In this document: positions 1-16,879 of the stretch, in pieces
Position numbering within the stretch: the first letter of the stretch is position 1
Layout: each line of letters begins with the position of its first letter
Origin: a virus
Taxonomy: Duplodnaviria > Heunggongvirae > Uroviricota > Caudoviricetes
Direction: 5' to 3' (one strand)
IMG/VR virus record: IMGVR_UViG_3300031992_000008
Location: 1 to 64,000 of that record
Length of the DNA: 64,000 nucleotides
Notes under the pieces: generated by a model
The model's input: the letters and a program-made list of their open reading frames with translations, nothing else
Told to the model about the DNA's origin: nothing
Databases searched by the model: none
Translations under genes and position numbers: made by a program

Positions 1-116
1 CCCGGAGTCCATTGTCATGGCGGAAGGAATGAATTTAATAAATTCACTATGGAACGAATAGCAGTAGCTGAAAAATTCTTTGATGCAATTATTGCAGGTG
101 CCCTCAATAAATAGAT

Positions 117-140
117 AAAGCCCTTCGTGGCTTTCTTTTT
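117..140 (+). terminator. intrinsic terminator (AAAGCC/GGCTTT stem plus T5)
   Basis: Hairpin plus T-run immediately before early promoter box. Confidence 0.5.
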
Positions 141-170
141 GATTTGTATATTATACAATAGAAACTTTTA
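141..170 (+). promoter_or_regulatory. early-class phage promoter box (GTATATTATACAATAGAAAC)
   Basis: Conserved motif shared with 2512, 3083, 8255, 8801, 12845 and minus-strand copies. Confidence 0.55.
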
Positions 171-179
171 GAGGTAATT

Positions 180-494
180 ATGGATGATGAATTTAAATTC
201 AAACCAGAACTTCTTGGCTTATTCTTCTCGCAGAGATATCTCTTTGAGAAACATATAAAGGGCTATAAGGAAGAAAACTATGGGTGGTACCAAGAAGGTG
301 ACAAGAAAGGTCTAAGAGGACGCATCACCGCTGATGGTGTGGAATTAGAATTCGATACCTTGGCATTTGAAAAGGATCCAAGAAATATGGATCACAACTT
401 TATCATGTTTGGAGGAGTTGCCCACAGCTTTAATGATTACTGTGATCAAGGCGAGATTGAGCAACTATTCTTAGATATGTCTGAATGGATTTAA
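180..494 (+). CDS. hypothetical early protein (104 aa)
   Basis: ORF with GAGGT SD 8 nt upstream; first gene after early promoter box at 141-170. Confidence 0.6.
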   Translation: MDDEFKFKPELLGLFFSQRYLFEKHIKGYKEENYGWYQEGDKKGLRGRITADGVELEFDTLAFEKDPRNMDHNFIMFGGVAHSFNDYCDQGEIEQLFLDMSEWI

Positions 495-521
495 CTTTAA
501 ATCAAAAGAAGGGTATTAACG

Positions 522-662
522 ATGCTTAAATTCGGCGGATTACTATTAGCCCTATCTGGTGCTGTTATGCCGTATGAGAATGCTTTTCAATATGCAGTCG
601 GAGGTGTTATGATTTTTGTAGGAACAATTATTTTCTTAAATACCAAGGATAAACGTATATGA
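522..662 (+). CDS. small hydrophobic protein (46 aa), not in ORF track
   Basis: ATG at 522 with GAAGGG SD; protein MLKFGGLLLALSGAV...VGGVMIFVGTIIFL is TM-like; stop overlaps next start (ATGATGA). Confidence 0.4.
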   Translation: MLKFGGLLLALSGAVMPYENAFQYAVGGVMIFVGTIIFLNTKDKRI

Positions 663-967
663 TGAATAATTTGAAAGTATTTGATGTTGACAAGATGGCA
701 GATGTGAGGTCATTGAGTGGCCGATTTTATCGAAAGTCCGATGTGGATGATGTCATTGCTGCGATGGACACCGAAATTGAGAAGTTAGAAGCGGACTATA
801 AGGAAGCCTGTGACCGCTTGAAGACTGCAAACCTCATTAAGGATGAGCAGAAAGCGAAAGCAGACAAACTACTTTCTTGTTTGAAGAGTCTAGTGATGCG
901 CGACCTTATCAAGGATTGCCCGGATAAGACCTCTGCCATTGAAATCATAAAGGAGTATGACAAATGA
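659..967 (+). CDS. hypothetical protein (102 aa)
   Basis: ORF, AAGGA SD. Confidence 0.6.
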   Translation: MMNNLKVFDVDKMADVRSLSGRFYRKSDVDDVIAAMDTEIEKLEADYKEACDRLKTANLIKDEQKAKADKLLSCLKSLVMRDLIKDCPDKTSAIEIIKEYDK

Positions 968-1164
968 TAACTTGCGTAATTTTAGTGATTTTATGGGTAG
1001 CATATACAGTTGCCATTGGCAAATTCTTCTTTTACATATGCGATCTACCACCTGCACCACTGTTTGATGATAATTCTATAGGTATCTGCGCAGGATTTGT
1101 CCTTGCATTGGCTGGATGGATAGGATTCTCCATTTTTGTGTGGTGGTATCTATTTGGATGCTAA
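964..1164 (+). CDS. small membrane protein (66 aa)
   Basis: ATGA overlap with upstream stop; two hydrophobic helices. Confidence 0.4.
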   Translation: MITCVILVILWVAYTVAIGKFFFYICDLPPAPLFDDNSIGICAGFVLALAGWIGFSIFVWWYLFGC

Positions 1165-1213
1165 GAGGTATTTGAATTATGGTGACAAATATACAACTGA
1201 CTATGGAGATTAG

Positions 1214-1591
1214 ATGATAGATAAATCTAAATTTTATACTATTAGCGACATAGAGAGCGAATTTTCTGCAACAGTAATTACTGCCATTAGACAACGAGAC
1301 GAATATATTAAAGAATTGGAACGAATCAAATTCAAGTATGAATTTGGAAAGCACTTTGACCAGATTCATTCTTTCCTCTTTGAACTGGATTTCTGGGAAA
1401 TTACTGAACTAATTGGCGAAGAATTTGACAGGAGATTCTCGTTTAAGAGCAAGAATGGCTGTTTTATTCTAAATTGTAAATTGGACGGTAATACTGAAAA
1501 TTACAGAATCAAGAGAATTAGTGAAACTGAATATTTTGTAGAATGCGGGCTTGACAAGATTTTCAGTGAACTGGAAAAATTGGAGAAGTAA
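1214..1591 (+). CDS. hypothetical protein (125 aa)
   Basis: ORF with GGAG SD. Confidence 0.6.
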   Translation: MIDKSKFYTISDIESEFSATVITAIRQRDEYIKELERIKFKYEFGKHFDQIHSFLFELDFWEITELIGEEFDRRFSFKSKNGCFILNCKLDGNTENYRIKRISETEYFVECGLDKIFSELEKLEK

Positions 1592-1592
1592 A

Positions 1593-2069
1593 ATGAGCGA
1601 TAAAGAACAACAGCTTCTTGATTTGTTTGAAAAACACAAGAAAGACTTAGACGGTGGTAGACTGGAAGCTCTTTTTGAATTTACTGAAGAGCTTGAAAAA
1701 GAATTAAAGCAAAGCCCTAAGTATGGAAAAATTACTACTGCAATTATGCACTCTTATATCATGAGTGCTTATCAGGTAGGACGTAAGCGAGCAGAGGACT
1801 ACTATAAAGCACTAAGGAAAGATGAAGAAGAACACAGATTCCATTTGACTTGTGAAGAAACACCTCCAGATGGCGAATTGGTTTACTGTGTTGGTAAAGA
1901 TCACTGTACACAGAAGGAATTGTCCGGTATCTATTTCTATCATAGCGGATATTGGTGGACTGACGAACAACGCAAATCTGACGAATGTTGGTTTGATGGA
2001 TCTGGCATAAACGATTATGTATTCTATAAATGGATGAAACTTCCAAAGGATGAATCAAATGAAGATTAG
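1593..2069 (+). CDS. hypothetical protein (158 aa from second ATG)
   Basis: GGAGAAG SD precedes ATG at 1593 directly after upstream stop; track start 1551 lacks SD. Confidence 0.55.
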   Translation: MSDKEQQLLDLFEKHKKDLDGGRLEALFEFTEELEKELKQSPKYGKITTAIMHSYIMSAYQVGRKRAEDYYKALRKDEEEHRFHLTCEETPPDGELVYCVGKDHCTQKELSGIYFYHSGYWWTDEQRKSDECWFDGSGINDYVFYKWMKLPKDESNED

Positions 2070-2265
2070 TAAAATAATTGAAGAACTCACCGAGCTAAAA
2101 GAAATCATTGGCGACAGGGAAGTAGAAGGATGCATGGCAAATAGCGCTGTGACATCTGTCAATATCTTGTACCTGAATGATGAAGGTGGCTATACCAGTA
2201 CATGTCTGGAAGGTGAGAAGCTGAAGGCAAAGACATTGGGCAATATGGCTAAAGAGCAAAATTAG
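2059..2265 (+). CDS. hypothetical small protein (68 aa)
   Basis: AAAGGA SD 9 nt before ATG 2059; overlaps upstream stop. Confidence 0.4.
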   Translation: MKISKIIEELTELKEIIGDREVEGCMANSAVTSVNILYLNDEGGYTSTCLEGEKLKAKTLGNMAKEQN

Positions 2266-2283
2266 CCTAATTTGACTATACAC

Positions 2284-2480
2284 AGAACTAATAAATGGCG
2301 ATGTTACTGGATGCTTGCCAGTAAGCTCAACTAAGATAGAATGGTTCGCTCCTCCACGGAAAGAAGGTCGTTACGTGAGAGGAATCAGCGGGGCCGCAAG
2401 GGATCCACATGGCCTTCTTAGTGGAAACCCAGAATCTCAAGATATGCGCCTTGAGACTATTTTATCTTTGTTTTAATTTT
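2284..2480 (+). ncRNA. GC-rich structured non-coding region (candidate ncRNA or structured 3' UTR)
   Basis: About 200 nt with no ORF in any frame; GC well above flanks; several stable stems (ttactgg/ccagtaa, aagaagg/ccttctt, ctcaag/cttgag). Confidence 0.3.
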
Positions 2481-2511
2481 AGGTCTACCCGAAGGTAGGC
2501 CTTTTATTTTT
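2481..2511 (+). terminator. intrinsic terminator (8-bp stem, CGAA tetraloop, T-run)
   Basis: aggtctaccCGAAggtaggcct then TTTTATTTTT. Confidence 0.65.
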
Positions 2512-2547
2512 GATTTGTATATTATAGAATAGACAATCTTAACCATG
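2512..2547 (+). promoter_or_regulatory. early-class promoter box (GTATATTATAGAATAGACAATCTTAACC)
   Basis: Motif conservation; SD and ATG follow. Confidence 0.6.
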
Positions 2548-2552
2548 GAGTA

Positions 2553-3047
2553 ATGATGGACTACAAAAAGACTGAGGAATGCTATAAAGATATAAATGAG
2601 AGAATTAGTAGCCTGACAAGACTGATAGAAGCTAAAAATGACGAGCTAGCAGAATTAAAACAAGTTCTGAAGATGGAACTAAACAAAGAAAAACTGAAAG
2701 AATACCAAGACTGGAAGTTTGACAATAGATGGTTTGCCGAACTCGATCTTATTAACAAAGACCAAGAGACAGGTAAGATTTACTTCTATCATATAGAAAA
2801 AGCTTCAAAACCTGTGGTAGACGAGCGTGGAAATCCATTTGTTGATGCTAAAATTGATATAGAAATTGTCATAGAAACATATCCGAATAGAGACAAGACT
2901 ATCCGAGAAATGTTCAATGACAGTAAGCGGTTAAAATTGCGGCGTATAAAAGAAATTCCGGGAATGGTTGTGAGGGCCAAGGTAGAAGCTGCTCTTAATA
3001 CTCTAGCAACACGACTTAATATGTTCTTAGGCCCAGATGAGGGATAA
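2553..3047 (+). CDS. hypothetical early protein with coiled-coil N-terminus (164 aa)
   Basis: Single-gene operon between terminator 2481-2511 / promoter box and terminator 3057-3086. Confidence 0.65.
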   Translation: MMDYKKTEECYKDINERISSLTRLIEAKNDELAELKQVLKMELNKEKLKEYQDWKFDNRWFAELDLINKDQETGKIYFYHIEKASKPVVDERGNPFVDAKIDIEIVIETYPNRDKTIREMFNDSKRLKLRRIKEIPGMVVRAKVEAALNTLATRLNMFLGPDEG

Positions 3048-3056
3048 CCAAACTAT

Positions 3057-3086
3057 AAGGCATTTCTATAATGCCTTTCTTTTTTG
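3057..3086 (+). terminator. intrinsic terminator
   Basis: aaggcat ttctata atgcctt then TCTTTTTT. Confidence 0.65.
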
Positions 3087-3120
3087 GTTAGTATATTATA
3101 GTATGTACATTAAACCTTAA
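3083..3120 (+). promoter_or_regulatory. early-class promoter box (GTATATTATAGTATGTACATTAAACC)
   Basis: Motif conservation. Confidence 0.55.
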
Positions 3121-3128
3121 GGAGACCT

Positions 3129-3671
3129 ATGTACACTATTAGTAGATTTATCGACGACATAGAAAAAGCTCTCTATCCCTATCATCTCGGAGAGTTCAAA
3201 GTACATGAAGAAAAGAACAGCTGCGGATACCTAGAAGGATCTACAGATCTTAAGAAAGTTTCGTATATATGGTATGGCAAAGAGATTGCCAATATTATCC
3301 TTGACACTGACTTAGGTACGACTATCGTACATGCTAGAAAAAGTCTCGTTAAAGACGATTTGCATATTATTCATCCTTTCTTCTTGAAGAGATATGTAAG
3401 AAAGTGCATGAAGTATGAACTCAAGTGGATCAAAGGTAGAAACAAGATCTGGGATATCTTTGATGACATCCACAGACCAAGACTAGACATGAATATTCCC
3501 TATAAAGAGAATAAGGAGATTGTGCTATCTCGAATTGCAGAGAAGTGCTTTGAAGAATATGCACAAAATGGTGAGCAACTAGGAATCTTCCTGAAAAAGA
3601 TTGCGAAATATGTTGCCCCGAATTGGACAGTAGACATCAATGTTACAACTAACCCTAAAGAGGATCAATAG
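3129..3671 (+). CDS. hypothetical protein (180 aa)
   Basis: AAGGAG SD; first gene of operon after promoter box at 3091. Confidence 0.65.
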   Translation: MYTISRFIDDIEKALYPYHLGEFKVHEEKNSCGYLEGSTDLKKVSYIWYGKEIANIILDTDLGTTIVHARKSLVKDDLHIIHPFFLKRYVRKCMKYELKWIKGRNKIWDIFDDIHRPRLDMNIPYKENKEIVLSRIAEKCFEEYAQNGEQLGIFLKKIAKYVAPNWTVDINVTTNPKEDQ

Positions 3672-4394
3672 ATGCTTAAAGCAATTAAGAAATTTTTGAC
3701 TAAATTGTTCGGTGTTGATAATCACATTGACACCACCTTGGCAAATAGCCTAAAGCCTACACGTACTCCGTTAGAAAATCGTCTTTCTATCGAGGCTGAA
3801 GAGCTTGGAATTCTCATAGATTACCTTGTAAAAGTTCGTGAATCGCTCAATTACGAGAGTGTTATCAATGCAGCTGATATCAAGATAACTTCTCAAGAAG
3901 TCCTTAGAGCTGCAGAACATGCCAAAACATTAGCGTATCTTGTTAAGGCTACCAAAGACAAAGGCTTTGACGAGATCAAAGAACGTTTTATCAGGGCAAT
4001 AGAGAATGCCGGAAAGAACGGTTACTACAGTGCAGTAGTATTCTTTAATTGTTGTATCGGCGTCATAGACAAGGAATTTTATCTGCATAATAGTATTTTT
4101 AATGTAAATGATTACTATACGAATCTCATTCAAGCCGTTAATATATACGTTACCATTAAAGACCTACAGAAAAAAGGTTTCAAATTTAGAAGAACTGGAT
4201 ATGACTTTATTATCTCTACTGATGAAACAGTAGTAGATGAGCTTAAGATAGAGCCTAAGCTTCTTCATGTCTATAAGTCTTCAGAAGACATTGAGCCTTT
4301 ACTGAAGGATTATGAAGTAAACGCAAAGAAGCTCTACGATGAATTCCCTGAGCTCTTTGGCCCCGAGCTTAAACAAATATTCAATTTTAACTAA
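3672..4394 (+). CDS. hypothetical protein (240 aa)
   Basis: ATG immediately after upstream TAG. Confidence 0.65.
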   Translation: MLKAIKKFLTKLFGVDNHIDTTLANSLKPTRTPLENRLSIEAEELGILIDYLVKVRESLNYESVINAADIKITSQEVLRAAEHAKTLAYLVKATKDKGFDEIKERFIRAIENAGKNGYYSAVVFFNCCIGVIDKEFYLHNSIFNVNDYYTNLIQAVNIYVTIKDLQKKGFKFRRTGYDFIISTDETVVDELKIEPKLLHVYKSSEDIEPLLKDYEVNAKKLYDEFPELFGPELKQIFNFN

Positions 4395-4403
4395 GGATTT
4401 TCT

Positions 4404-4841
4404 ATGACAAAAACAAAAATAAAAGAATTAGCCGATGAGACTGCATACTTGATTCTAGATACTCTTATTGCATATCCACTTAGCAGTGAAAGTCAAAGAT
4501 GCGATGGAGAAGGATACCCATATTACGGCAGAGGAACTCCAATAGTGCTATCTGATGCTGATGAATTGGAAAAATTTAAGAGCGAATGTTTTTCCGTTAT
4601 TGGGGAGAACGTATTTAATTCTCTTACTGTCGCTAAGCCTGGTAGCCAAAGTATTTATAATGGTTGCATTGAAGATTATTGTAGTAAACAACTCAACAAA
4701 GCATTATACAATATTTTAAAGGATAGACCTAAGGATATTTACCAATTACTTAGAAATAATCTAGATGCAGCTGATTATTCTGGATTTGACTTTATGGAAA
4801 TTTTAGATGATCTTAAGAAGACATTCAGTATAGAACCTTAG
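4404..4841 (+). CDS. hypothetical protein (145 aa)
   Basis: ORF with AAGGA SD. Confidence 0.6.
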   Translation: MTKTKIKELADETAYLILDTLIAYPLSSESQRCDGEGYPYYGRGTPIVLSDADELEKFKSECFSVIGENVFNSLTVAKPGSQSIYNGCIEDYCSKQLNKALYNILKDRPKDIYQLLRNNLDAADYSGFDFMEILDDLKKTFSIEP

Positions 4842-4868
4842 GCTAAAATTCGATTTTGAATAGGAGAA

Positions 4869-5369
4869 ATGATGCCGAATTTCTTTAAATTAGTGCTCGA
4901 CGTATACTCAGAATGTTTGAGGCATGTTTGGGCATGGACAAAAATACTACTGATCGGGCTTGCAGTTCTGCTGCCCGGTCTTATTTGCCTAATATACATG
5001 TTCGCTACTAATACTCCAGATATAGGGATCATCCCAAGTATTATAGTGATCTGGCTGATAGTTCTATGGGCTCCGATCCCATTAAGGCCCTTCTTTTACA
5101 AAGACAAGGCGTTATTAGAAATGTACACTCAATACTTGATTCATGTAGCTGCAGCCATTTGTTTGGTTATCGCAGTCATCATCTATTTAGGGTGGATGTT
5201 TCTTCCAATACTCATAGAAGTAGCCATATGCACTATAGGAGATCGAAATCCTATGCCTCTTGAGGGGCTATTGATCTTGATAGGGAACCTTATATGGGGG
5301 CCAGTAGCTTACTGTATGTTTAACATGCTTTTAGAGAAGATATACAAGAATGACAAAAAGGAGTCATAA
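4869..5369 (+). CDS. polytopic membrane protein (166 aa, about 4 TM helices)
   Basis: Hydrophobic segments; AGGAG SD; conserved 5' UTR hairpin motif upstream. Confidence 0.6.
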   Translation: MMPNFFKLVLDVYSECLRHVWAWTKILLIGLAVLLPGLICLIYMFATNTPDIGIIPSIIVIWLIVLWAPIPLRPFFYKDKALLEMYTQYLIHVAAAICLVIAVIIYLGWMFLPILIEVAICTIGDRNPMPLEGLLILIGNLIWGPVAYCMFNMLLEKIYKNDKKES

Positions 5370-5815
5370 TGAAAGACCTCTATATGTTCGGTGTGAACAT
5401 TGCAAAAGCCGACAGCCATAATAAAGTCTATTGCGAAGTACTCAAAGCTATAAAAGCAGGTATACAATCTGGAAAGAAGAGCCTTAGGATCGTCTGTACA
5501 GCTATATCTGATTCTAGAATAGCTACTGGGCCTTGGCCTATTCCTATTAAGATTGGAGACCACCCTGATGACCAAAGCGTCGGAGTGGTTTTCAATACAG
5601 GTTTCTATGATCTTTCTACTGTAACCGTTGAAGAACGAATGTCGTTCATGAAGGGCGCAATGGAAAAATTTGGGAAATTAGCCTTATACTATCTATACAA
5701 CATAGTCTTTCAAGTTATGTGTGAAGCCAATCATTATTATATCATCGCAGACCTAAACTACAAGTTCAGACTAAAATTCGATTTCGAAAGGAGAAACAAA
5801 AATGAACCCATCTGA
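5369..5815 (+). CDS. hypothetical protein (148 aa)
   Basis: AAGGAG SD; TAATG overlap with upstream gene. Confidence 0.55.
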   Translation: MKDLYMFGVNIAKADSHNKVYCEVLKAIKAGIQSGKKSLRIVCTAISDSRIATGPWPIPIKIGDHPDDQSVGVVFNTGFYDLSTVTVEERMSFMKGAMEKFGKLALYYLYNIVFQVMCEANHYYIIADLNYKFRLKFDFERRNKNEPI

Positions 5816-6242
5816 AGAAATCTATGAAGGCATGATTGCATGTGATGAGAATGGCGAGTATGTCAAGCTTCAGAAGCTCGAAAATGAAACAAAGCTCGGA
5901 GATATGCCCAGAGGATTCGGAGATGTACTTATTGAGACATGGAAAACCGACGGGCAATGGAACAAGGATTTAGTTCCAAGCGAGTTCTTTTACTTTATCG
6001 AGCACAAAGATTATGACAATGAAGACTGCGAGACTATGTATTATGAAAGTGTGTCATCATTGATCGATGATTTTGAAAATTGGATGCTCGACGAAGATGA
6101 AGACAAATATGGCTATAAATATTTCTTGGACATGGAATCTCACGACTGTCCAAAAGAGTTTACCGTAGCCAAATTTGATCAGCTCATGAACTGGGCTTTC
6201 TCACTTAAACACAAGGTTGCTCTTGTAGCTGCCGAACACTAA
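5802..6242 (+). CDS. hypothetical acidic protein (146 aa)
   Basis: AGGAGAAA SD; overlaps 3' end of upstream gene. Confidence 0.6.
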   Translation: MNPSEEIYEGMIACDENGEYVKLQKLENETKLGDMPRGFGDVLIETWKTDGQWNKDLVPSEFFYFIEHKDYDNEDCETMYYESVSSLIDDFENWMLDEDEDKYGYKYFLDMESHDCPKEFTVAKFDQLMNWAFSLKHKVALVAAEH

Positions 6243-6257
6243 CAAGGGAAATTCACA

Positions 6258-6851
6258 ATGGACAATAAAATCAAAGAACAGATTGACGCAATCTTTGCCA
6301 AGCATCCCGGCAATATGATTTGTCTTGAGATGTATGGTGATCAAGACTATGATGGAATCGCCACCCAACGTGAATGGGATGAATGGATGGAAAGATTCGA
6401 CAATGAAATAGAGCTTGAACAAGCTCCTAAAGGTTTTCCGATTAAGAAAGCTGCGTTTGCCAATCTTGGATTCGACTATGATAGTTTTCCGGCTGATGAT
6501 ATTCCAATCATCAACGATCTTTCTGGTCTTATCTGCAGTGTTCTGCCTTGGGAAATGGAAGATTTCAATGGCGAGGTAAACCATTACTGGTATGGTCTGG
6601 TAGTTGTCACGAGAGACTACAAAGTCCTTCGTGTTACTTCCGATGGTACTAGTCTTCTCTACAGATCTGAAATTGGTGATCTTTCCAAAATGGGATCCCA
6701 AGAAGAAGAAATCGAGAAGCTTGCTCTGGCTTCAATCAAAGAATCTGTCGGAAACATTCTTAGCAAGTTTAAGAGCGTAGTATCTGACAAAGGAAAGTCT
6801 CAGGTCTTTGGTATGGTTGAAGACTTGGATCGAGCAATCACGAAAGGCTAA
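6258..6851 (+). CDS. hypothetical protein (197 aa)
   Basis: ORF. Confidence 0.6.
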   Translation: MDNKIKEQIDAIFAKHPGNMICLEMYGDQDYDGIATQREWDEWMERFDNEIELEQAPKGFPIKKAAFANLGFDYDSFPADDIPIINDLSGLICSVLPWEMEDFNGEVNHYWYGLVVVTRDYKVLRVTSDGTSLLYRSEIGDLSKMGSQEEEIEKLALASIKESVGNILSKFKSVVSDKGKSQVFGMVEDLDRAITKG

Positions 6852-6852
6852 A

Positions 6853-7128
6853 ATGAGTGGACTGAGATCGTATTTCTACTACGAAGATACTGTTATAACT
6901 CCGGCTACTCGTCGATATCGAGTATATCATGCAGACGAAGCCGATAAGTATATTGTGGAACAGAAAGAGCAGCTACAAACAGAGCTTGATAAAAGTAACC
7001 GTCGTGTAGCTGCATTGGCAGAACTGCACTCTGCGTTGAAGCGTCTCGTTGTTAGCGGCTTTTTCAGCGGAATAACCAAACAGACAATAGAAGGCTTGCT
7101 AAAAGATACAGACATCGATAATATATAA
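6853..7128 (+). CDS. hypothetical protein (91 aa)
   Basis: ATG at 6853 directly follows upstream TAA with AAAGG SD; track start 6808 is inside upstream gene. Confidence 0.5.
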   Translation: MSGLRSYFYYEDTVITPATRRYRVYHADEADKYIVEQKEQLQTELDKSNRRVAALAELHSALKRLVVSGFFSGITKQTIEGLLKDTDIDNI

Positions 7129-7154
7129 GACTATGACTATTTAGGAGACAATCG

Positions 7155-8186
7155 ATGCATACATACCGCATTACAACATCAGATTCTCTGCTAGAAATAG
7201 GAGAATATCGAGACATCGGTCACGATGAACTTGTAGACTACGATAGAGTAAGATGCCTCAATGAAAGTGTAGCTAAAAACTGCGCTAATGCCATTTCAGA
7301 CTTTTGTAAAAAACATAAGGGAATTCAATTCAAACCTGCAGATATCACAAAAGTTATTAGGGAAAATAGTGGCATACAATGCACAAGCCTAATGCGTTTT
7401 CTCGGAACACTCGAACAGTCGTCCGAGCAAAAAGAACTTTTGGGCAAGTTCACCAAAAAATGTCCTAAGAACGTTACCTCTGAAAAAGGAGATACAATGT
7501 CAGAAGCATACAAGATCCAAAAAGTCGATGAAAGCGACATCAAGATCGAGCATCTTGAAGATAACGAAGTCATTGGCGAATGGACTCTTACTATCCCTAC
7601 GGCATCTGTGCGCAACAAGTGCTTCGATTTGCTGATGGATATCTATGTGAATCACGAAAATTCGCTTGATATCGTCTGTCTCGAAGCGCTCGAAACTGCG
7701 GTCAACAATGCAGATGTTCGAAAGGAATATGACGTAATGGTAAAAGAACTCATTGACCAAGGAGTTCTCCCCGCATGCTTTGATATCAAGAAGAAAATCA
7801 AGGCTCGTAACAAACTCACAACAACAACCTTAAAGGAAGAATCCACCATGGATATCAAAGAAATAATTAAACTAAAGATGATGACCAAGATCCTCAACAA
7901 GAAGGGTGAAATTGATGTCAAGCAACTGATGATGATTCAGATGCTCTCCAACGACGAAGGCTTTGAAATTACCGATGTCATCAAGACAAAGCTCATGGCA
8001 AGCCTCTTCGACGGTAAGGCCGATCTTGACAACATGACCACTGAACAGCTCATGGTCTATGGTATGCTTCAGAACGGTGAATTCGATATCCAGAAGCTCA
8101 TCGAAATCAAGTTCATGAGCAAGATTCTCGACGAAGACGACGAAGAAGTTGAAGACGACAAGGACAAGGCAGCTGAACGTAAGTAA
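7155..8186 (+). CDS. hypothetical protein (343 aa) with about 4 internal C-terminal repeats
   Basis: AGGAG SD; repeated K(L/F)M..(I/L)...D....L.. units in residues 238-330; last gene before terminator 8212-8242. Confidence 0.65.
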   Translation: MHTYRITTSDSLLEIGEYRDIGHDELVDYDRVRCLNESVAKNCANAISDFCKKHKGIQFKPADITKVIRENSGIQCTSLMRFLGTLEQSSEQKELLGKFTKKCPKNVTSEKGDTMSEAYKIQKVDESDIKIEHLEDNEVIGEWTLTIPTASVRNKCFDLLMDIYVNHENSLDIVCLEALETAVNNADVRKEYDVMVKELIDQGVLPACFDIKKKIKARNKLTTTTLKEESTMDIKEIIKLKMMTKILNKKGEIDVKQLMMIQMLSNDEGFEITDVIKTKLMASLFDGKADLDNMTTEQLMVYGMLQNGEFDIQKLIEIKFMSKILDEDDEEVEDDKDKAAERK

Positions 8187-8211
8187 GCTGTAGTGATCCG
8201 TGTACATTGAG

Positions 8212-8242
8212 AGTGGCGCTAGCAGTGCCACTTTCTTTTTTG
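8212..8242 (+). terminator. intrinsic terminator
   Basis: agtggcgctagcagtgccact then TTCTTTTTT. Confidence 0.6.
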
Positions 8243-8254
8243 TAAATTTCTGTG

Positions 8255-8288
8255 TTCCGGCGGTATATTAAATAGAGAATCTTAACCA
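8255..8288 (+). promoter_or_regulatory. early-class promoter box (GGTATATTAAATAGAGAATCTTAACC)
   Basis: Motif conservation. Confidence 0.6.
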
Positions 8289-8305
8289 TCAACAAGGAGT
8301 AAGCC

Positions 8306-8407
8306 ATGAAAAAGATTCTTACCGCAATCGCTGTACAGTGGGCGATTCTTATAACTTTGGACACTGTAGAAAGAGCATACCACATCTGGAGGAAGAAAAA
8401 TGTCTAA
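8306..8407 (+). CDS. small protein (33 aa), not in ORF track
   Basis: AAGGAG SD 7 nt before ATG 8306, directly downstream of promoter box; MKKILTAIAVQWAILITLDTVERAYHIWRKKNV. Confidence 0.3.
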   Translation: MKKILTAIAVQWAILITLDTVERAYHIWRKKNV

Positions 8408-8771
8408 TACCAGCAGCTCTACTCGCCAGCTTATCGACGAAAATGCAAATATCGTTAATGATCTCAGGGTAAAGACTGAGAACAAGCGTTTCGTCAGGTT
8501 TGTCAAGGGTAAGTCCTATTCTATTAGGGTCGTCGAAAAAGTTTTCGTGAAAGATACTACGACAGTTCTGTTCCTGATCAGAGAGACTACTGTAACGAAA
8601 CATGGAGCTGCCTTCGGGCAGATTTATCGTAAGTGTCTTTTCGAAGATCTGAAGAATGATCTAAAACAGACTCTGTATAAAGTCATCGGAAGAATCTGTA
8701 ATAACGAAACATCATTCCAGAAGTATCTACGCCAAGCCAAGAAGAAATTTGAAGAGGCTGAGGTGGCCTAG
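8400..8771 (+). CDS. hypothetical protein (123 aa)
   Basis: GGAGGAAG SD. Confidence 0.55.
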   Translation: MSNTSSSTRQLIDENANIVNDLRVKTENKRFVRFVKGKSYSIRVVEKVFVKDTTTVLFLIRETTVTKHGAAFGQIYRKCLFEDLKNDLKQTLYKVIGRICNNETSFQKYLRQAKKKFEEAEVA

Positions 8772-8774
8772 AGA

Positions 8775-8802
8775 CAAGCGGTTAATAGCCGCTTTCTTTT
8801 TT
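8775..8802 (+). terminator. intrinsic terminator
   Basis: aagcgg ttaata gccgctt then TCTTTTTT. Confidence 0.6.
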
Positions 8803-8830
8803 GTATATAATTTAATAGACTAACTTAACC
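8801..8830 (+). promoter_or_regulatory. early-class promoter box (GTATATAATTTAATAGACTAACTTAACC)
   Basis: Motif conservation. Confidence 0.6.
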
Positions 8831-8845
8831 AAACTCAGGAGACTT

Positions 8846-9352
8846 ATGAAAAACAAAAAAGTCATAACGGAAGATATGGGCGTTGACGAAGAGCTCATTA
8901 AATACGGAAAGCAGGTTCTTGCAGATGCACTGAAACGCGAAGAGCATCATGTGATGACACAAGAACCGTCTGACGAAGATGCTTCGAAGTACGTAGAACA
9001 GAGTAGGTACGTCTTTAGTAGGGCGTACGAAATGTTCTGCAATTTCATCGATAATACAATCATCGATGTTACTAAGACTACAGAAGCCGAATTTGACAAG
9101 GCTGTATACAAGTTTGCCATGGTGCTAGTCCCGGCACTTGAAAAAGAATTCCCGGAGGTGTTCAATGCGTTTATTGCGCCATTGATGCCTGAAGACAAGA
9201 AAGAGGCTATCGTTGTGAGAAACTCCATTCTTAGCTACTGCGGAAATCTCTTAGTTCAACCATTAGTATTGGCTATCGCAACCAGATTCCTTGAACATCG
9301 AGACATCGAGTTTAAGACTTCCGGTAAAGCTAATAAGGTTGTAATGAATTAG
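8846..9352 (+). CDS. hypothetical protein (168 aa)
   Basis: AGGAG SD; first gene after promoter box 8801-8830. Confidence 0.6.
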   Translation: MKNKKVITEDMGVDEELIKYGKQVLADALKREEHHVMTQEPSDEDASKYVEQSRYVFSRAYEMFCNFIDNTIIDVTKTTEAEFDKAVYKFAMVLVPALEKEFPEVFNAFIAPLMPEDKKEAIVVRNSILSYCGNLLVQPLVLAIATRFLEHRDIEFKTSGKANKVVMN

Positions 9353-9373
9353 ACAAACCATGAGGTAAATTGT

Positions 9374-9517
9374 ATGAGAAGATTCGTGCTTAACATGATC
9401 TACTTCTTAATATTCTTGGTAATAATCACAGCTCTACTGAAGTTCTTAGCCATTGGCTTTTGGACTTTCGTAGGTATAGCTTTGCTGTTCTTCATTTTCA
9501 AAGGACTCATAAAATGA
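9374..9517 (+). CDS. small two-helix membrane protein (47 aa), LiaI/PspB-like by position
   Basis: GAGGT SD; hydrophobic; stop overlaps next start (ATGA); not in ORF track. Confidence 0.45.
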   Translation: MRRFVLNMIYFLIFLVIITALLKFLAIGFWTFVGIALLFFIFKGLIK

Positions 9518-10266
9518 TCATCAAAGACGGAATATTTGTTCTGATTATGACGCTTGCGTCTATAATAGGATTACGCTTTCTACCAGTAACACCAGCTGTT
9601 AGCTTACTTGTAATCTTCACTGTCCTAGAGATTCTGATATCTATCTACTACAGGAAATCAAGATGCTTTAAGAATTCCTTCGGAGGAAACAGAAGGGAAA
9701 TTGGAACACTTGGATCTTTCTTCTTGTCATTCTGGATGTTCCTATTTGTTATTCCAACAATCCCATTTGATAAGTATGATGGCAAAATGCTATATATTGG
9801 TACACTCGTAGCTATACAGCTACTAATCACTATTGGAATAGTGCTATCGCTTATCGTTGGATATGCTGAAGGCGTCTTCGAAGAAGAAGCAAAAGCTAAA
9901 AAGGCAGAAAAATTATTGTCTGGAAAAGTCGTAGAGACCTATGTGAATGCTCAATTTAAGGATGGGATCATCTATCTTGCGAAGAGCATGAAAATAGGCG
10001 GAGATCCGTTGAGCACGTATCATCAGGATTTCCCTTCAGACAATGTATCCGCAATAGTCAAGACGACGAAAGATTCTGTAAGTTGGCGTACAGATGTCTA
10101 TCGGGAAGCGAAGAAACTTTGCCCGATTGTGAACAACGACCTGCTGTATGTGAGGTTTGCAAATCAAACATACACAGAAGCCTCAACAGGCAGATTGATA
10201 ATAACTGGAAGGCCTGATTATGTGAATAAGGTTCTTCTAAGCCTTAATCTCTCAACCTTAACCTAA
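9514..10266 (+). CDS. membrane protein (N-terminal about 4 TM helices plus C-terminal soluble domain)
   Basis: ATGA-coupled to upstream small TM gene; immediately upstream of PspA homologue. Confidence 0.6.
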   Translation: MIIKDGIFVLIMTLASIIGLRFLPVTPAVSLLVIFTVLEILISIYYRKSRCFKNSFGGNRREIGTLGSFFLSFWMFLFVIPTIPFDKYDGKMLYIGTLVAIQLLITIGIVLSLIVGYAEGVFEEEAKAKKAEKLLSGKVVETYVNAQFKDGIIYLAKSMKIGGDPLSTYHQDFPSDNVSAIVKTTKDSVSWRTDVYREAKKLCPIVNNDLLYVRFANQTYTEASTGRLIITGRPDYVNKVLLSLNLSTLT

Positions 10267-10289
10267 CAAACTCAAAGGAAAAACAAACA

Positions 10290-10955
10290 ATGAACATCTT
10301 CAAATTCTTCAAAATCAAGACAAAGACTGTTGGCGAAAAACTCGACAACCTCGTAACATTCGATGAAAAACTCCGCAACGCAAAGGAAGAGCTGCAGAAG
10401 TCTAAGGCAGCCGTTGTGGAAGATGCTGTGAACATTCATGAATCCGAAAAGATCGCAAAGAAGGCTCTTGAGCTGAATAATACGCAGATCGAAATCGTCA
10501 AGGGCAAGCTTGCCAAGGCTATCAAGAGCGGCGAAGATAACAAGGCAGAAGCCCTGTTCTCCAATCTTGAATCCTTGCAGACTGCCAACAAGATTCACGA
10601 AAAGTCTTACAATGACATTCAGAAGAGCCGTGAAAAGATCGATAAGAAGGTCGTAAGTATCGATAACAAGATCTTCAAGGTCTCTGCTAAGCTCGATGGT
10701 CTGAAGCAGGTTCGTGCAGCACAGGAAATGGTTGCAAAGCTTGCTGGTGTTTCCACTAACAACGCTGTCGGAAATGTTCTCAAGGACATCGAAGACTTCG
10801 TTGAACATGAAGAATGGAAACTCGAATCTAAGCAGGAAGTTCAGGATCTTCTCGACAAGAATGCCTCTACAGAAGACACTGAAGAAGAAGTTGAATCCAG
10901 CGCCCATGAACGCTTTGAAGCTTACAAGGCTAGCATTCTGAGCGAATCCAAGTAA
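10290..10955 (+). CDS. PspA/IM30/Vipp1 (ESCRT-III-like) family protein
   Basis: N-terminus MNIFKFFK..EKLDNLV and long coiled coil align to E. coli PspA (MGIFSRFADIV..); GC3-rich codons. Confidence 0.7.
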   Translation: MNIFKFFKIKTKTVGEKLDNLVTFDEKLRNAKEELQKSKAAVVEDAVNIHESEKIAKKALELNNTQIEIVKGKLAKAIKSGEDNKAEALFSNLESLQTANKIHEKSYNDIQKSREKIDKKVVSIDNKIFKVSAKLDGLKQVRAAQEMVAKLAGVSTNNAVGNVLKDIEDFVEHEEWKLESKQEVQDLLDKNASTEDTEEEVESSAHERFEAYKASILSESK

Positions 10956-10967
10956 TCCCTAAACATA

Positions 10968-11002
10968 CGGGGTGGGTCGAATGACTCACCCCATTTTTAT
11001 TT
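10968..11002 (+). terminator. intrinsic terminator after PspA gene
   Basis: ggggtgggtc gaat gactcacccc then ATTTTTATTTT. Confidence 0.65.
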
Positions 11003-11006
11003 TCCT

Positions 11007-11468
11007 ATGAATGAAAAGAGCAACTTCGAAAGAAATATTGTCATCGGAATCTTTATGCTTGTTCTTACTATCGTCGGAGTCATCTATTTGAATCTGTCGC
11101 AGAACTATAAGAACTCTCATGAAGAAGAGATGAAAAGACTAGAAATAGAGGCTATGAAGAAGCCAACAAAGGAAGCTATCAAGGCTGCTATCTTGGATTC
11201 AATCAAGATCAACCAAAGATACTTCATACAGACGGACAGCTTCACTCCACCGCCTCCTCCGCCACCATCAAAGAATGAAAAACCTAAAAAGCTTGTCTTG
11301 GAGTATGAGCAGAATCTCAAAGACGGAACAAGGAATCTAATCAGGTTTACAGCCGATAATCCTACTCCGGAAGAAAGAGTAGCTCTATACACGATGTTCG
11401 ATACAGAAGTATCGAAAGTCATAAACATCAAAGGACAAGACTTTAGCGTTAATCTGATGAGGGAATAA
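11007..11468 (+). CDS. bitopic membrane protein with poly-proline tract (153 aa)
   Basis: N-terminal TM helix; PPPPPPPS; follows terminator 10968-11002. Confidence 0.55.
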   Translation: MNEKSNFERNIVIGIFMLVLTIVGVIYLNLSQNYKNSHEEEMKRLEIEAMKKPTKEAIKAAILDSIKINQRYFIQTDSFTPPPPPPPSKNEKPKKLVLEYEQNLKDGTRNLIRFTADNPTPEERVALYTMFDTEVSKVINIKGQDFSVNLMRE

Positions 11469-12025
11469 TGAAACTAATGCCTTCTTTTTGCATGGAAGAA
11501 AAACATGGTCTAACACTTGGATTCTGTCTTCTTATATTGTTCATCATTGTGCCATGTATCGCTGCTAGCTGTGCCTGTGAATCATGCCAAGATGAATACC
11601 ATAAGAAGAAATCTGTAGAAGATAATTCCAGTGGTGTGACTGCTAGCAAGGTCAGCAAGATGACTAGATATGTGCATATTGGAGACATTGCAGTAATGTG
11701 CATCAATGGAAGAAGTGATGTCAATGTGTTAAATATTAAGACAGGAGATTACGTGCTAATCTCAGATACTAAGATAGACGTCTATCGCACTATTGGCACT
11801 GCGGTGAAGAAGCTATTTCCGGAAAGAAACATGGAAGACTACTACATCAAGGACGAATGTCTATCAAGCCTCAGAAAATCATGCCATCCTGTGAGTAATT
11901 GTATTAACGGAAATTTGTCTAGAGCAGATTGTCAAACAACCTGTAACCTGTACGATATCCCAGTACCATCTGACCGAGGAAACAAGGATGAACTAGTAGG
12001 AATGTACGGTATAACCATAAGGTAG
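11468..12025 (+). CDS. secreted/membrane-anchored cysteine-rich protein (185 aa)
   Basis: Hydrophobic signal-like N-terminus; about 12 Cys; TAATG overlap. Confidence 0.55.
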   Translation: MKLMPSFCMEEKHGLTLGFCLLILFIIVPCIAASCACESCQDEYHKKKSVEDNSSGVTASKVSKMTRYVHIGDIAVMCINGRSDVNVLNIKTGDYVLISDTKIDVYRTIGTAVKKLFPERNMEDYYIKDECLSSLRKSCHPVSNCINGNLSRADCQTTCNLYDIPVPSDRGNKDELVGMYGITIR

Positions 12026-12029
12026 AAAT

Positions 12030-12524
12030 ATGCCACAAATATTTGCTGGTTTCTTTATATTATTCTTGTTATCCGTAACTATCGCCTTTGGTGTGCCAAG
12101 CGGCGAAGAGTTTCGTGAAAAACACGCTCATGGAGAATTTCTAATGAGCGATAGCTTTACGAGCATTGGAAAAGCTGAACTGCGATATAACGATGACAAT
12201 GAGCCTACTATGAAATTCTATTCAAATGATTTTTCATACAAGTTCTCTGTCACCGATGGGAGTGCCAAGAGCACCATTGAACTGATGGACAAGTTGGTAT
12301 TCCAGTTGTATCACAAGAATCAGCCTTACTATCTTTCATATGAGTGCACGAGATTTCTAAGATCCGTTGAAGGAAAGAAGTCGTACTGTAAAACAGACAA
12401 CTCTTTACCGATGTGCAGAGCCGAGTGTGAGATCTATCAAGGCGATGGAATTCCTGACAAAGCTAAGTATATCGTGGAAAAACGAATAGCAAAGGATATA
12501 ACGAATGAAAATCAAGTACTTTGA
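12030..12524 (+). CDS. secreted protein with signal peptide (164 aa)
   Basis: N-terminal MPQIFAGFFILFLLSVTIAFG signal-like; AAGGTAG SD. Confidence 0.55.
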   Translation: MPQIFAGFFILFLLSVTIAFGVPSGEEFREKHAHGEFLMSDSFTSIGKAELRYNDDNEPTMKFYSNDFSYKFSVTDGSAKSTIELMDKLVFQLYHKNQPYYLSYECTRFLRSVEGKKSYCKTDNSLPMCRAECEIYQGDGIPDKAKYIVEKRIAKDITNENQVL

Positions 12525-12783
12525 TACAGAAATCGAATGTACAGTCGATGAATTTGAGGATATGATCGCTAGAGGGATTTTCAAGTCCAAAGTGAAACCC
12601 GAAGAATTCATCCATGACCTAATCCGCAAGGATCCGCCGCAAGCACCGTCATGGCCTGAAACCGTGGCGTTGTATGGCTGTCAAGTACCTGCTGATCAGA
12701 TCAAGTTTGAACAACCTTTATTTTATAAAGGTACTACAGCCTTACATGCAGATGAAACAGATGACAATAAAAACAAATCATGA
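12505..12783 (+). CDS. hypothetical protein (92 aa)
   Basis: ORF overlapping upstream 3' end; followed by terminator 12829-12859. Confidence 0.45.
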   Translation: MKIKYFDTEIECTVDEFEDMIARGIFKSKVKPEEFIHDLIRKDPPQAPSWPETVALYGCQVPADQIKFEQPLFYKGTTALHADETDDNKNKS

Positions 12784-12828
12784 CGTCTGAAAAGTAAAGT
12801 CTCATCTACCAAACAAGGAACCGTTGCG

Positions 12829-12859
12829 AATGCAGCGGTTTCTTTTTTATATTAAGAAA
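12829..12859 (+). terminator. intrinsic terminator
   Basis: aaccgttgc gaat gcagcggtt then TCTTTTTT. Confidence 0.6.
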
Positions 12860-12890
12860 CGATCATGTAATTAAACGTGATAATCTTCTT
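12845..12890 (+). promoter_or_regulatory. early-class promoter-like box (TTATATTAAGAAAC)
   Basis: Resembles box at 141-170. Confidence 0.4.
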
Positions 12891-12901
12891 ATGAGAACAG
12901 C

Positions 12902-13243
12902 ATGAAACCTTTAAAGTTCATTAGACTACAAAGAGTACTCATAAATAACTTTGACAAGTTCATTCCTGTCATCGAAATACAAGAAGGTGGATGCGCTTGG
13001 GACTTTCCTCCTCCGTACTTTTTAGCATACCCTAAACACATGGAATTATACTGCGGTGTAGGAATGAAACCTGCTCTGAAGTGTATTTCGGCAGAACAAA
13101 CATGTGTTCAGGGCTACATTGAGTATTGGAGAACAGAATATCTCGATAAGATTCCCTTTATGAATAGTATCGACGAATTCGTTAGGCGTTTCCCAGATTC
13201 ATACCGCAAGTATGTTGAATTTCCCGGAGAAAAAGATGGCTGA
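12902..13243 (+). CDS. hypothetical protein (113 aa)
   Basis: First ORF after promoter-like TTATATTAAGAAAC. Confidence 0.55.
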   Translation: MKPLKFIRLQRVLINNFDKFIPVIEIQEGGCAWDFPPPYFLAYPKHMELYCGVGMKPALKCISAEQTCVQGYIEYWRTEYLDKIPFMNSIDEFVRRFPDSYRKYVEFPGEKDG

Positions 13244-13622
13244 TAGTGGAATGACAGAAGACAAAAAAGAGGAGCCTTTCAAAGCTCCTCATCTCGATAC
13301 AGACATTGAAGAAATCGAGGAAGTCTGTAAATATAAGGACTTCCGTGGCAGCGAACAGGAATGCAAGATTATCTTTAAGCCTAACGATTGCGAAATGGCA
13401 TCAAGAAATCTGGCAACACTAGTGCAGCCTATTACCGGTATCTATATATCTGATAAGGAAAAAGTCAGAAGTATGATCAACAGAATGCTTGGCGAAGAAC
13501 ACAAATGTTGCTTTGGAATAAGCGTAGAGCCAAGATGTGATTTAAGATTTACTGACTGTGAAGCTGTAATTGGAAAAATGATTACCGAATTCTTGGAGGC
13601 ATTGCATGAAAGTAAGAGTTAA
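13236..13622 (+). CDS. hypothetical protein (128 aa)
   Basis: GGAGAAAAAG SD before ATG 13236. Confidence 0.5.
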   Translation: MADSGMTEDKKEEPFKAPHLDTDIEEIEEVCKYKDFRGSEQECKIIFKPNDCEMASRNLATLVQPITGIYISDKEKVRSMINRMLGEEHKCCFGISVEPRCDLRFTDCEAVIGKMITEFLEALHESKS

Positions 13623-13857
13623 AAAAAGTACGGATACAATAGTATCAAAACTTGAAGGTGTCGGAATAGACGATAATTCTGTATGTATCTTCATCAGATG
13701 GTATAATGAAAATTTTATTCCAGTAAGTGACGTAGACAAATTAGAGTATTTGTGCAACGGAAAATGGAAAGAAATAGAACTCTGGGAGAATGAAGACACT
13801 CCACGTAAACCAGAAGAAATCTATAATGAACTCGAAAAACTCTTCCTAAAAGGATAA
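13606..13857 (+). CDS. hypothetical protein (83 aa)
   Basis: GGAGG SD. Confidence 0.5.
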   Translation: MKVRVKKSTDTIVSKLEGVGIDDNSVCIFIRWYNENFIPVSDVDKLEYLCNGKWKEIELWENEDTPRKPEEIYNELEKLFLKG

Positions 13858-13861
13858 AACA

Positions 13862-14428
13862 ATGGTCAAAACAGCCGAACATAATAGAATGACATTTGAG
13901 GTCGTTCAATATACTGGAAAGAACTATGATGAATGTACTGCATTCATCGACAGTAATGGTATGTGGCCTCATATAGACGAGGATGCATCTTTTAGAATTC
14001 CTCCTAATAAAGCCATCGCAACCATGCGAACCAATGTCTTCCCCGGTGATTTTATCATCAAGGATGTATCTGGCTTGTTCATGAAGGATTGCTTCTATGC
14101 TACCTCTAAAGGAGCGTTTGAACTGTTCTTCAGACTGAAAGAATCAGAAAATGAAGTCCATGACTTTGGTTGGGCTCTTCGTCAGCTCAAGGCTGGAGAA
14201 AAGGTTCAGCGCAAAGGTTGGAATAGTAAGGGTATGTTCATTACCCTTCAGCCTGGATCCACAGTGAAGGGTGAACTCATGCGTAACGAACCTGCAAAGG
14301 AATTCTATAGCGGCAAACATTGTGTTATCATGTCTCATATAGATATGAAAGCGGCTGACGATTCCTACACAGTTGGTTGGAATGCAAGCCAAATTGACAT
14401 GCTAGCAGAAGACTGGCAGTTAGCTTAA
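13862..14428 (+). CDS. DUF2829 (Tad2-like anti-Thoeris sponge fold) fused to a about 100-aa N-terminal domain
   Basis: C-terminal FGWALRQLKAGEKVQRKGWNSKGMFITLQ...HIDMKAADDSY.VGWNASQIDMLAEDWQLA matches the DUF2829 signature (..KVRRKGWNGKGM...MKTADG...W.ASQTDMLAEDW..). Confidence 0.7.
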   Translation: MVKTAEHNRMTFEVVQYTGKNYDECTAFIDSNGMWPHIDEDASFRIPPNKAIATMRTNVFPGDFIIKDVSGLFMKDCFYATSKGAFELFFRLKESENEVHDFGWALRQLKAGEKVQRKGWNSKGMFITLQPGSTVKGELMRNEPAKEFYSGKHCVIMSHIDMKAADDSYTVGWNASQIDMLAEDWQLA

Positions 14429-14580
14429 CCATAATAAGGAAACTATGAAGGACGATCTTTATAAGGACATGCTTCCGAAATTAGATGGACTGGGAGATAA
14501 TCGTATCTCCCAGAATTCTTTTCCCGGAAGTACGTTCCTGAACCTACATTTCGACTATCATTCAAAGCTAAAGGAGCTCA

Positions 14581-15120: not shown

Positions 15121-15151
15121 CTAACAAACACACACAACAAGGAAAAAACAC

Positions 15152-16747: not shown

Positions 16748-16781
16748 AACTAAAAGATTTTACCCATAAAACCTCGATGGG

Positions 16782-16816
16782 GAGAGGCTCTAGAAATAGA
16801 GTCTCTCTTTTTTTCG
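16782..16816 (+). terminator. intrinsic terminator after flotillin gene
   Basis: gagaggctct agaaat agagtctctc then TTTTTTT. Confidence 0.7.
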
Positions 16817-16879
16817 TAAAATTCTATGCTCCGACATTATATTATTAATGGCCTTATAATCCTATAAGACAGTGTTACT

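Follow-up and report, generated by a model that had tools for sequence, protein, structure and literature searches.

The window analysed here is the whole stretch of 64,000 nucleotides (positions 1 to 64,000 of the IMG/VR virus record IMGVR_UViG_3300031992_000008, Caudoviricetes), and its proteins include matches to the PHROG families of a DNA polymerase, the large terminase, a tail sheath, an RNA polymerase (RNAP) beta subunit and a major head protein. In its intergenic regions a short AT-rich box, TATAT(T/A)A(A/T), recurs, frequently placed just after a terminator hairpin and ahead of the start codon of the next gene, and it is described here as a putative early promoter. An initial annotation had listed six hairpin, T-run and box units on the plus strand; all of these are present, with boxes starting at 147, 2518, 3092, 8264, 8804 and 12848, and the three reverse copies it proposed (24913-24920, 50994-51001 and 63325-63332, all on the minus strand) are equally real. 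Further copies were found at 16838-16845 and 53354-53361 (both plus), together with weak ones at 18036-18043 (minus) and 7122-7129 (plus). The individual units, including the Shine-Dalgarno (SD) sites, are the following, where ‘long’ refers to a spacing class defined below.

117-179, plus strand: module 1, with a weak hairpin 117-134, T-run 135-140, box TATATTAT 147-154, G 161 (putative +1), SD site and ATG 180
2481-2552, plus strand: module 2, with terminator 2481-2502 (-13.7 kcal/mol), box 2518-2525, G 2532, CTTAACCA 2538-2545, SD site and ATG 2553/2556
3057-3128, plus strand: module 3, with terminator 3057-3077, box 3092-3099, G 3105, a leader with AAACCTTAAGGAG and ATG 3129
8209-8305, plus strand: module 4 (‘long’), with terminator 8209-8235, spacer GTAAATTTCTGTGTTCCGGCG, box TATATTAA 8264-8271, G 8277, CTTAACCA 8281-8288 and ATG 8306
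8776-8845, plus strand: module 5, with terminator 8776-8794, box TATATAAT 8804-8811, G 8818, CTTAACCA 8824-8831 and ATG 8846
12815-12901, plus strand: module 6, with terminator 12815-12844, box TATATTAA 12848-12855 overlapping the T-run, G 12861 and ATG 12902
16779-16851, plus strand: module 7 (‘long’), with terminator 16779-16810 (-21.3 kcal/mol), box TATATTAT 16838-16845 and G 16851
63282-63388, minus strand: ‘long’ module, with terminator 63388-63366, box TATATTAT 63332-63325, G 63319, CTTAACCA 63309-63302 and ATG 63281
24881-24920, minus strand: box without terminator, CATATTAA 24920-24913, G 24907, SD site and ATG 24880
50961-51001, minus strand: box unit, TATATTAA 51001-50994, G 50988, CTTAACAA, SD site and ATG 50960, with its own terminator at 50569-50547
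53354-53384, plus strand: box without terminator, TATATTAA 53354-53361 right after a stop codon, ATG 53385
18030-18110, minus strand: uncertain weak copy, with terminator 18110-18079 after the major head gene, TATATAAG 18043-18036, G 18030 and ATG 18010
7122-7129, plus strand: weak TATATAAG variant
10969-10992, plus strand: strong terminator (-19.8 kcal/mol) without a box

The 8-mer TATATTA(A/T) occurs 19 times in the window, counting both strands. Non-coding sequence makes up 7.5% of the window and holds twelve of these copies, and ten lie at most 120 nt upstream of a gene start on the same strand. When dinucleotide shuffling was confined to the non-coding segments, the 11 copies observed there compared with 2.1 +/- 1.4 expected, and none of 1000 shuffles reached 11. 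Related counts were 8 against 2.0 expected for GTATATTA (reached in none of 100 shuffles), 9 against 1.9 for TATATTAWA (W being A or T) and 6 against 1.8 for CTTAACCA. A blind repeat search of the window returned the module as the largest family (D1), covered also by families D4 and D10, and aligned modules 147 and 2518 at 87% identity across 39 nt. Orientation is strict, as every good copy points toward the next gene, with the start codon 31-54 nt away. A high-scoring box at 23946 on the minus strand was judged to be due to chance because it is intragenic and has no conserved counterpart in relatives.

To obtain a consensus, 32 sites were aligned from the window and from loci L001 and L003-L005, which were taken from three IMG/VR metagenomic contigs related to the window (242 kb, Ga0265299_10000024; 179 kb; 56 kb); loci L007-L011 come from the genome of phage AR9. 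The counts along the box are T29 A32 T31 A31 T31 T26/A6 A32 A22/T10, i.e. each position is conserved in 26-32 of the 32 sites, where one site, 18046(-), was set three bases out of register and per-column counts may be one too low. Directly 5' of the box a G is present in 17 of 32 sites. Downstream, a conserved G, mostly following a T, is spaced from the box start by 13 nt (21 sites) or 14 nt (ten sites), which corresponds to 5 or 6 nt past the 8-mer and to an overall form (G)TATAT(T/A)A(A/T)-N5/6-G. Sites 147, 2518 and 8804 fit TATAT(T/A)AT-6N-G exactly. Should the G be the +1, as analogy suggests, leaders would be 18-41 nt long. Upstream of the flanking G (position -1) no column exceeds 0.4 bit and a conserved -35 is absent, with just a weak GTAA visible 22-19 nt upstream of the box. 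The AATAGA that had been given as part of the box is found in four of the six plus-strand copies. Overall, the element shares with early promoters of the AR9 and phiKZ type a highly conserved, AT-rich stretch of about 10 nt around a TATATTA core.

Terminator hairpins precede seven of the 11 good box copies and sit after stop codons. Nine of ten hairpins are stable (-9 to -21 kcal/mol, z -4 to -8) and run directly into a T-run, as intrinsic terminators do. In the case of the six plus-strand modules listed initially, the values are -9 to -19 kcal/mol (z -4 to -6), apart from the weak hairpin at 117-134 (-6 kcal/mol, z -1.3). In the window as well as in its relatives, two classes of distance between stem end and box can be distinguished, namely 3-15 nt (‘short’) and 24-33 nt (‘long’). 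A spacing within 10 nt of the terminator, as first proposed, fails at 8264, as 22 nt separate the end of the T-run from the box. The spacer of the ‘long’ class is itself conserved, e.g. GTAAATTTCTGTGWTCCG, and eight sites of this class carry (T/C)G(T/C)(A/G), usually YGTA (Y being C or T), exactly 23 nt upstream of the box. Scans of viral contigs with this spacer returned just the known relatives and chance coding matches, and a metagenome scan with the spacer extended into the box returned just the 242-kb relative; an IMG/VR scan with TTTTTTGTATATTAWA was uninformative, as it hit more than 120 unrelated AT-rich contigs.

A T-rich tract upstream of the box was considered as a promoter element and rejected. 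The four good copies without a terminator (53354, 51001, 24920 and 7060 in L001) have no such tract, so the T-run belongs to the terminator and not to the promoter. As a separate observation, the hairpins at 21930-21954 and 61955-61981 have T-runs on both sides and lie between convergent genes; they are likely bidirectional terminators.

A second motif, AACT-N6-TG, marks other genes. It is present in 36 copies on both strands, almost all in 20-62 kb, and 17 of these (1.4 expected) are followed by a gene start within 60 nt, where the distance to the ATG is mostly 24-38 nt. TG, usually TGA, is strongly preferred over TA, although TA variants are found before the sheath gene. The AACA form is not enriched in the window (5 observed, 3.3 expected). 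Copies of this late-type motif, which is kept at homologous positions in the relatives, precede the genes of the terminase, a prohead protease homolog, a baseplate-like protein and a virion RNAP (vRNAP) subunit.

35651-35662, plus strand: AACT-N6-TG before the terminase gene
24959, 27640, 28900, 31993, 37589, 45892, 51027, 51883, 54033, 59319 and 59984, plus strand: other copies
49274, 24569 and 22546, minus strand: other copies

The two motifs partition cleanly. Boxes head the units of 1-17 kb and the operon that starts at 53385, which extends to 58204 and beyond and includes the gene of a non-virion RNAP (nvRNAP) beta subunit, whereas AACT-N6-TG stands before structural genes. The boxes are thus oriented with and placed upstream of the presumed early operons, and the structural genes carry the other signal instead. 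Of all the evidence from within the window, this partition argues most strongly that the box stands for a temporal class of its own. The two signals occur together in some units, as late-type motifs are also found inside the operons headed by 24920 and 53354. Within the minus-strand unit headed by box 24920, the neighbouring genes 22864-23667 and 23829-24545 (both minus strand) are paralogs, each about 36% identical to the AR9 hypothetical protein gp261.

Regarding the enzymes that could read these signals, two genes are of particular importance.

56267-58204, plus strand: homolog of AR9 gp089, annotated as nvRNAP beta C-terminal subunit, downstream of box 53354
34884-35615, minus strand: homolog (51% identity) of the RNAP domain of gp078, an AR9 protein annotated as vRNAP subunit

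The product of 56267-58204 is nearest to PBS1/AR9 (36% identity), followed by phiR1-37, a Listeria jumbo phage and Staphylococcus jumbo phages. The product of 34884-35615 also matches phrog_3233, ‘RNA polymerase beta subunit’ (E 2.5e-42), and the signal upstream of its gene is the late-type motif and not the box. With both homologs inside the window, each of the two split beta/beta' polymerases required of such a system is represented. Because of these two homologs, the closest isolates and the large size of the related contigs, the window is, judging from its sequence, part of an uncultivated jumbo phage of the AR9/PBS1/phiR1-37 group with a two-polymerase system of the AR9/phiKZ type. The homologs and the likeness of the box to AR9 promoters also support the initial suggestion of a jumbo phage that would transcribe early genes with its own packaged polymerase. 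At the DNA level, megablast of window positions 1-20000 against isolated phages found no match. No record matched the terminase in an exact-protein lookup, an IMG/VR search with the early protein 7155-8186 yielded no relatives, and no AR9 homologs were found among the genes of 1-17 kb. Pfam gave almost no matches for ten window proteins, and Rfam and tRNA scans of the window gave none.

Box positions are kept beside homologous genes in the relatives: 53354 corresponds to 7060 in L001 (TATATAAA), 24920 to 16910 in L003 (and is kept in L004 and L005 as well), 12848 to 5445 in L003 and 63332 to 17201 in L001. Module 6 (12815-12901) is 84% identical to L003 5388-5452. Within 1-17 kb, the promoter-terminator modules are almost the sole DNA that can be aligned between relatives.

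Taken together, we consider it probable that the boxes are early promoters read by the virion RNAP and placed just after intrinsic terminators, which would give insulated early units. What is observed directly is an enriched and oriented motif that pairs with terminators and is conserved in relatives, together with gene sets of both polymerases. By analogy with AR9 and phiKZ, the box would be the early promoter core, centred near -10, and would be read by a multisubunit RNAP that is packaged in the virion and injected with the DNA; the timing of expression would follow the same models, and transcription would most likely start at the conserved G 5-6 nt past the box. Since most boxes are placed just past terminator stems, each early unit would be terminated and re-initiated inside one intergenic cassette of 70-100 nt. 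Small ORFans and the genes encoding the non-virion polymerase, the second of the two, would belong to the early units. The structural genes, like that of the vRNAP subunit, would use AACT-N6-TG, presumably read by the non-virion enzyme.

Several points weigh against this assignment to the virion enzyme, which itself draws on homology and sequence context. Firstly, the window holds a single vRNAP subunit homolog, where the remaining subunits were not searched for. Secondly, a block of four genes in the early region (11007-12783) has no box: none follows the terminator at 10969-10992, so that this block is without an identified promoter. Thirdly, at site 53354 the G is absent from the expected position, and most sites have one nt less between box and G than AR9 does. 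Lastly, TATATT matches the -10 hexamer of sigma-70/sigma-A at five of six positions, and the ‘long’ class has TTGTAA or TTGCGA 18 nt upstream, so host polymerase is possible for some copies.

This last point leads to the alternative that the boxes are host-type sigma-70/sigma-A promoters, similar to T4 early promoters, and that host polymerase reads them alone or alongside the phage enzyme. Agreement with the hexamer (TATATT against TATAAT) is matched by a box-to-G distance that suits a -10 element, and a consensus scan returned TTGTAA-18-TATATT at 8240, TTAATA-18-TATAAT at 8782 and TTGCGA-18-TATATT at 12824, besides the (T/C)GTA that lies exactly 23 nt upstream of the box in the eight ‘long’ sites. 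However, shuffled sequence reaches the threshold of that scan about 44 times per 20 kb. Moreover, the -35 region holds at most 0.4 bit over the 32 sites and the -35/-10 pairing of sigma-70/sigma-A promoters is not found, while in the ‘short’ class the -35 position falls within the terminator hairpin. Conservation of all eight box positions plus a fixed G goes beyond what a -10 hexamer needs, and AR9 has the same core together with a similar upstream GTA element that is unlike TTGACA. In AR9, early transcription proceeds without new protein synthesis and has been ascribed to the injected virion enzyme and not to host RNAP (PMC5312081). As the partition between box and late-type motif also weighs against a host sigma factor, we regard the host-promoter explanation as unlikely.

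Less likely than the host explanation, and in our view improbable, is the idea that the units are mainly recombination or mobile cassettes, as the T4 PeSL elements (early promoter plus stem-loop terminator), so that their similarity would come from recent duplication and exchange and not from selection by a polymerase. Evidence for exchange does exist. Besides the identity between modules 147 and 2518 (87% over 39 nt), the cassette at 8226-8275 is 90% identical to L004 3163-3211, which precedes an unrelated 149-aa gene. L003 carries homologs of the early genes of the window in a different order and with one box each, whereas their counterparts in the window at 5802-6242 and 12505-12783 lie inside longer operons. 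Furthermore, L001 lacks a 1.9-kb stretch (49285-50985) that carries a box and a terminator of its own. Nevertheless, the 32 sites are dissimilar outside the box and the G, therefore most copies are not recent duplicates, and a cassette role is compatible with promoter function since PeSLs are themselves promoters and terminators (PMC2839356). Weaker still, and very improbable, is that a DNA-binding protein of phage or host uses the box as an operator, or that the box simply reflects AT-rich terminator surroundings, in either case without acting as a promoter: it is AT-rich and often touches the T-run, but the four good copies without a terminator are not T-rich upstream, orientation is strict with the start codon 31-54 nt away, and the core is identical to experimentally mapped promoters of related phages.

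The same exchange can be described alongside the virion-RNAP promoter reading. With regard to PeSL-type breakpoints, the same cassette stands before non-homologous genes, reordering is bounded by promoters and one 1.9-kb indel is present, where the relatives are too diverged to show junctions. Likewise, an early promoter and a stem-loop terminator are combined in one short intergenic unit within a variable, ORFan-rich region. Early genes thus appear to have been shuffled between relatives in promoter-bounded units, as is the case with T4 PeSL cassettes. The 49285-50985 stretch, which looks like an inserted self-contained unit, lies between two divergent late-type promoters and holds a 130-aa gene with early box and terminator as well as a 388-aa gene with a faint leucine-rich-repeat match.

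Some of the leaders carry a further element, TTAACC. It is found in nine of 30 early-type leaders and in none of 44 late-type leaders, starting 3-12 nt after the putative +1 (mostly at +6 to +8) and 0-15 nt before the SD site; based on these counts and variable positions, it is early-specific and loosely placed. It is less general than first described, as CTTAACC(A), attributed to most copies, occurs in three of the six plus-strand copies and in four of nine overall. A near identity over 40 nt between the copies at 50987 and 8801 could not be upheld either, since they share blocks that need gaps to align. The element could act in the DNA (promoter escape) or in the early mRNA (translation, stability or shut-off). 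CTTAACC also resembles the leader of T7 gene 10 and would be complementary to a conserved segment of the 16S rRNA, to which no weight was given here. More tentatively, and rather less probable than not, the units of terminator, box and leader could be portable cassettes for swapping early ORFans, PeSL-like with a virion-RNAP promoter, with TTAACC(A) as a new early-mRNA signal.

Concerning the units themselves, the operon boundaries proposed initially are essentially right, with the omission of the block 11007-12783 and a possible small open reading frame (ORF) at 2315-2476. The genes of 11007-12783 also have no late-type motif, and read-through or an unrecognised promoter must serve them. Past box 16838, about 500 nt of the plus strand (16851-17345) contain just a 30-aa ORF with a strong SD site (17089-17181), the next plus-strand gene being 17346-17639. 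This segment folds somewhat better than shuffles (z -2.9) and has no similarity to the relatives, which have a 149-aa gene there; no remnant of the 149-aa gene of L004 was found in 16850-17345, and a relaxed Rfam scan of 16750-17400 gave no match. Either a non-coding RNA or the decayed remains of a gene may be located here.

Strand assignment in this window is complicated by very long antisense ORFs in exact codon register with genes. The largest case is 40684-44994 (minus) against 40669-44937 (plus), with 1436 aa opposite the sheath gene, and further cases are found at 18126-19964/17682-20057, 28957-30069, 24957-25718, 26457-27149 and 61965-62936. It follows that TTA, CTA and TCA hardly occur as sense codons, an unusual situation for a GC content of 40.7%. 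Such ORFs can mislead: 17682-20057 (plus) was rejected as a gene and is a shadow of the major head gene 18126-19964 (minus), as indicated by substitution patterns against L003 and L005 and by the match to the major head protein.

As a whole, the analysis gives a working transcription map for an uncultivated AR9-like jumbo phage lineage, with about a dozen early promoters, terminators and a late-type class. On the basis of the two putative promoter classes, unknown genes can be sorted into early (host take-over) and late ones from sequence alone. The compact terminator-promoter cassettes could serve as orthogonal expression parts, and the shuffled early region offers a case for studying the exchange of accessory genes in giant phages. 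Of most interest for further work are the variant late-type motif, the leader element specific to early units and the shuffling bounded by cassettes.

Compared with known systems, the T4-like PeSL cassettes, terminator-promoter units that mediate modular shuffling (PMC2839356, PMC4122927), are similar in being small composites between a stop codon and the next SD site in a variable region of small ORFans, in standing before unrelated genes as the same cassette, and in a gene order that varies between relatives. They differ in that the PeSL has a sigma-70 consensus promoter with -35 and -10, read by host RNAP, often with the stem-loop inside the promoter. The present phage is unrelated to T4, its hairpins are located upstream of the promoter, and no -35 is conserved (no position above 0.4 bit).

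According to a review, the early operons of all jumbo phages that encode RNAPs are preceded by an AT-rich motif, about 10 nt long and located near -10 (PMC7598289). The phiKZ early consensus put forward in the initial annotation was right (TATATTAC; PMC7058600, Table 2), with TATATTACDWHDGTG in 201phi2-1 and KATATTATYWAAGTG in OBP and N1M2 (PMC7058600). This family shares the TATATTA core near -10 and a G or TG at the start site, and its promoters are read by the virion RNAP. In contrast to the present phage, it has C or T after TATATTA, conserved blocks at -20 and -30, and TATG as late signal instead of AAC(A/T)-N6-T(A/G). The proteins of the window are closer to those of AR9, which is the nearer reference.

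In AR9 the early promoter is AAATATATATTAT-(6N)-G+1, mapped by differential RNA sequencing (dRNA-seq) and primer extension, is active without new protein synthesis and was assigned to the virion RNAP that is injected; the late promoters have the form AACA-(6N)-T(A/G) (PMC5312081). AR9/PBS1 and the present phage share the TATATTAT core with a conserved G (after T) fixed a few nt downstream, the position before operons of small unknown genes and nvRNAP subunit genes, a density of about one per 5-6 kb, a subset with a GTA-containing element about 22-24 nt upstream, homologous RNAP subunits and a separate AAC(A/T)-N6-T(A/G) class before late genes. In the AR9 genome the counterpart of the upstream GTA is a conserved CCGTATTAAA, 16-25 nt upstream of TATATTAT in eight of 29 early promoters; the text of the AR9 paper (PMC5312081), as consulted, makes no mention of it. 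As differences, AR9 has an AAATA extension 5' of the core, where a G is preferred here, and the eighth position is A or T here, the sixth tolerates A, and the G lies mostly 5 nt and not 6 nt past the 8-mer. A terminator abuts the box in seven of 11 sites here versus two of 38 in AR9, in a similar scan that is insensitive in the AT-rich DNA of AR9. The AR9 late promoter is read by nvRNAP with gp226 on a uracil-containing template strand, whereas here the late-type signal is defined by its motif; AAC, a 6-nt spacer and T(G/A) are common to both, here 24-38 nt before late-gene start codons, while the fourth base is T instead of A and TG is preferred over TA. Late-type motifs inside the 24920 and 53354 early operons resemble the arrangement of the continuously expressed genes of AR9. 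At a protein identity of about 30-50% between the two phages, the comparison points to positions held fixed by both phage polymerases, which are the TATATTA core and, in the late motif, AA. Others drift, namely the extension 5' of the core, base four of the late motif and the distance to the start. Overall, the box is most likely a known type of signal, the virion-RNAP early promoter of jumbo phages, in a new phage lineage.

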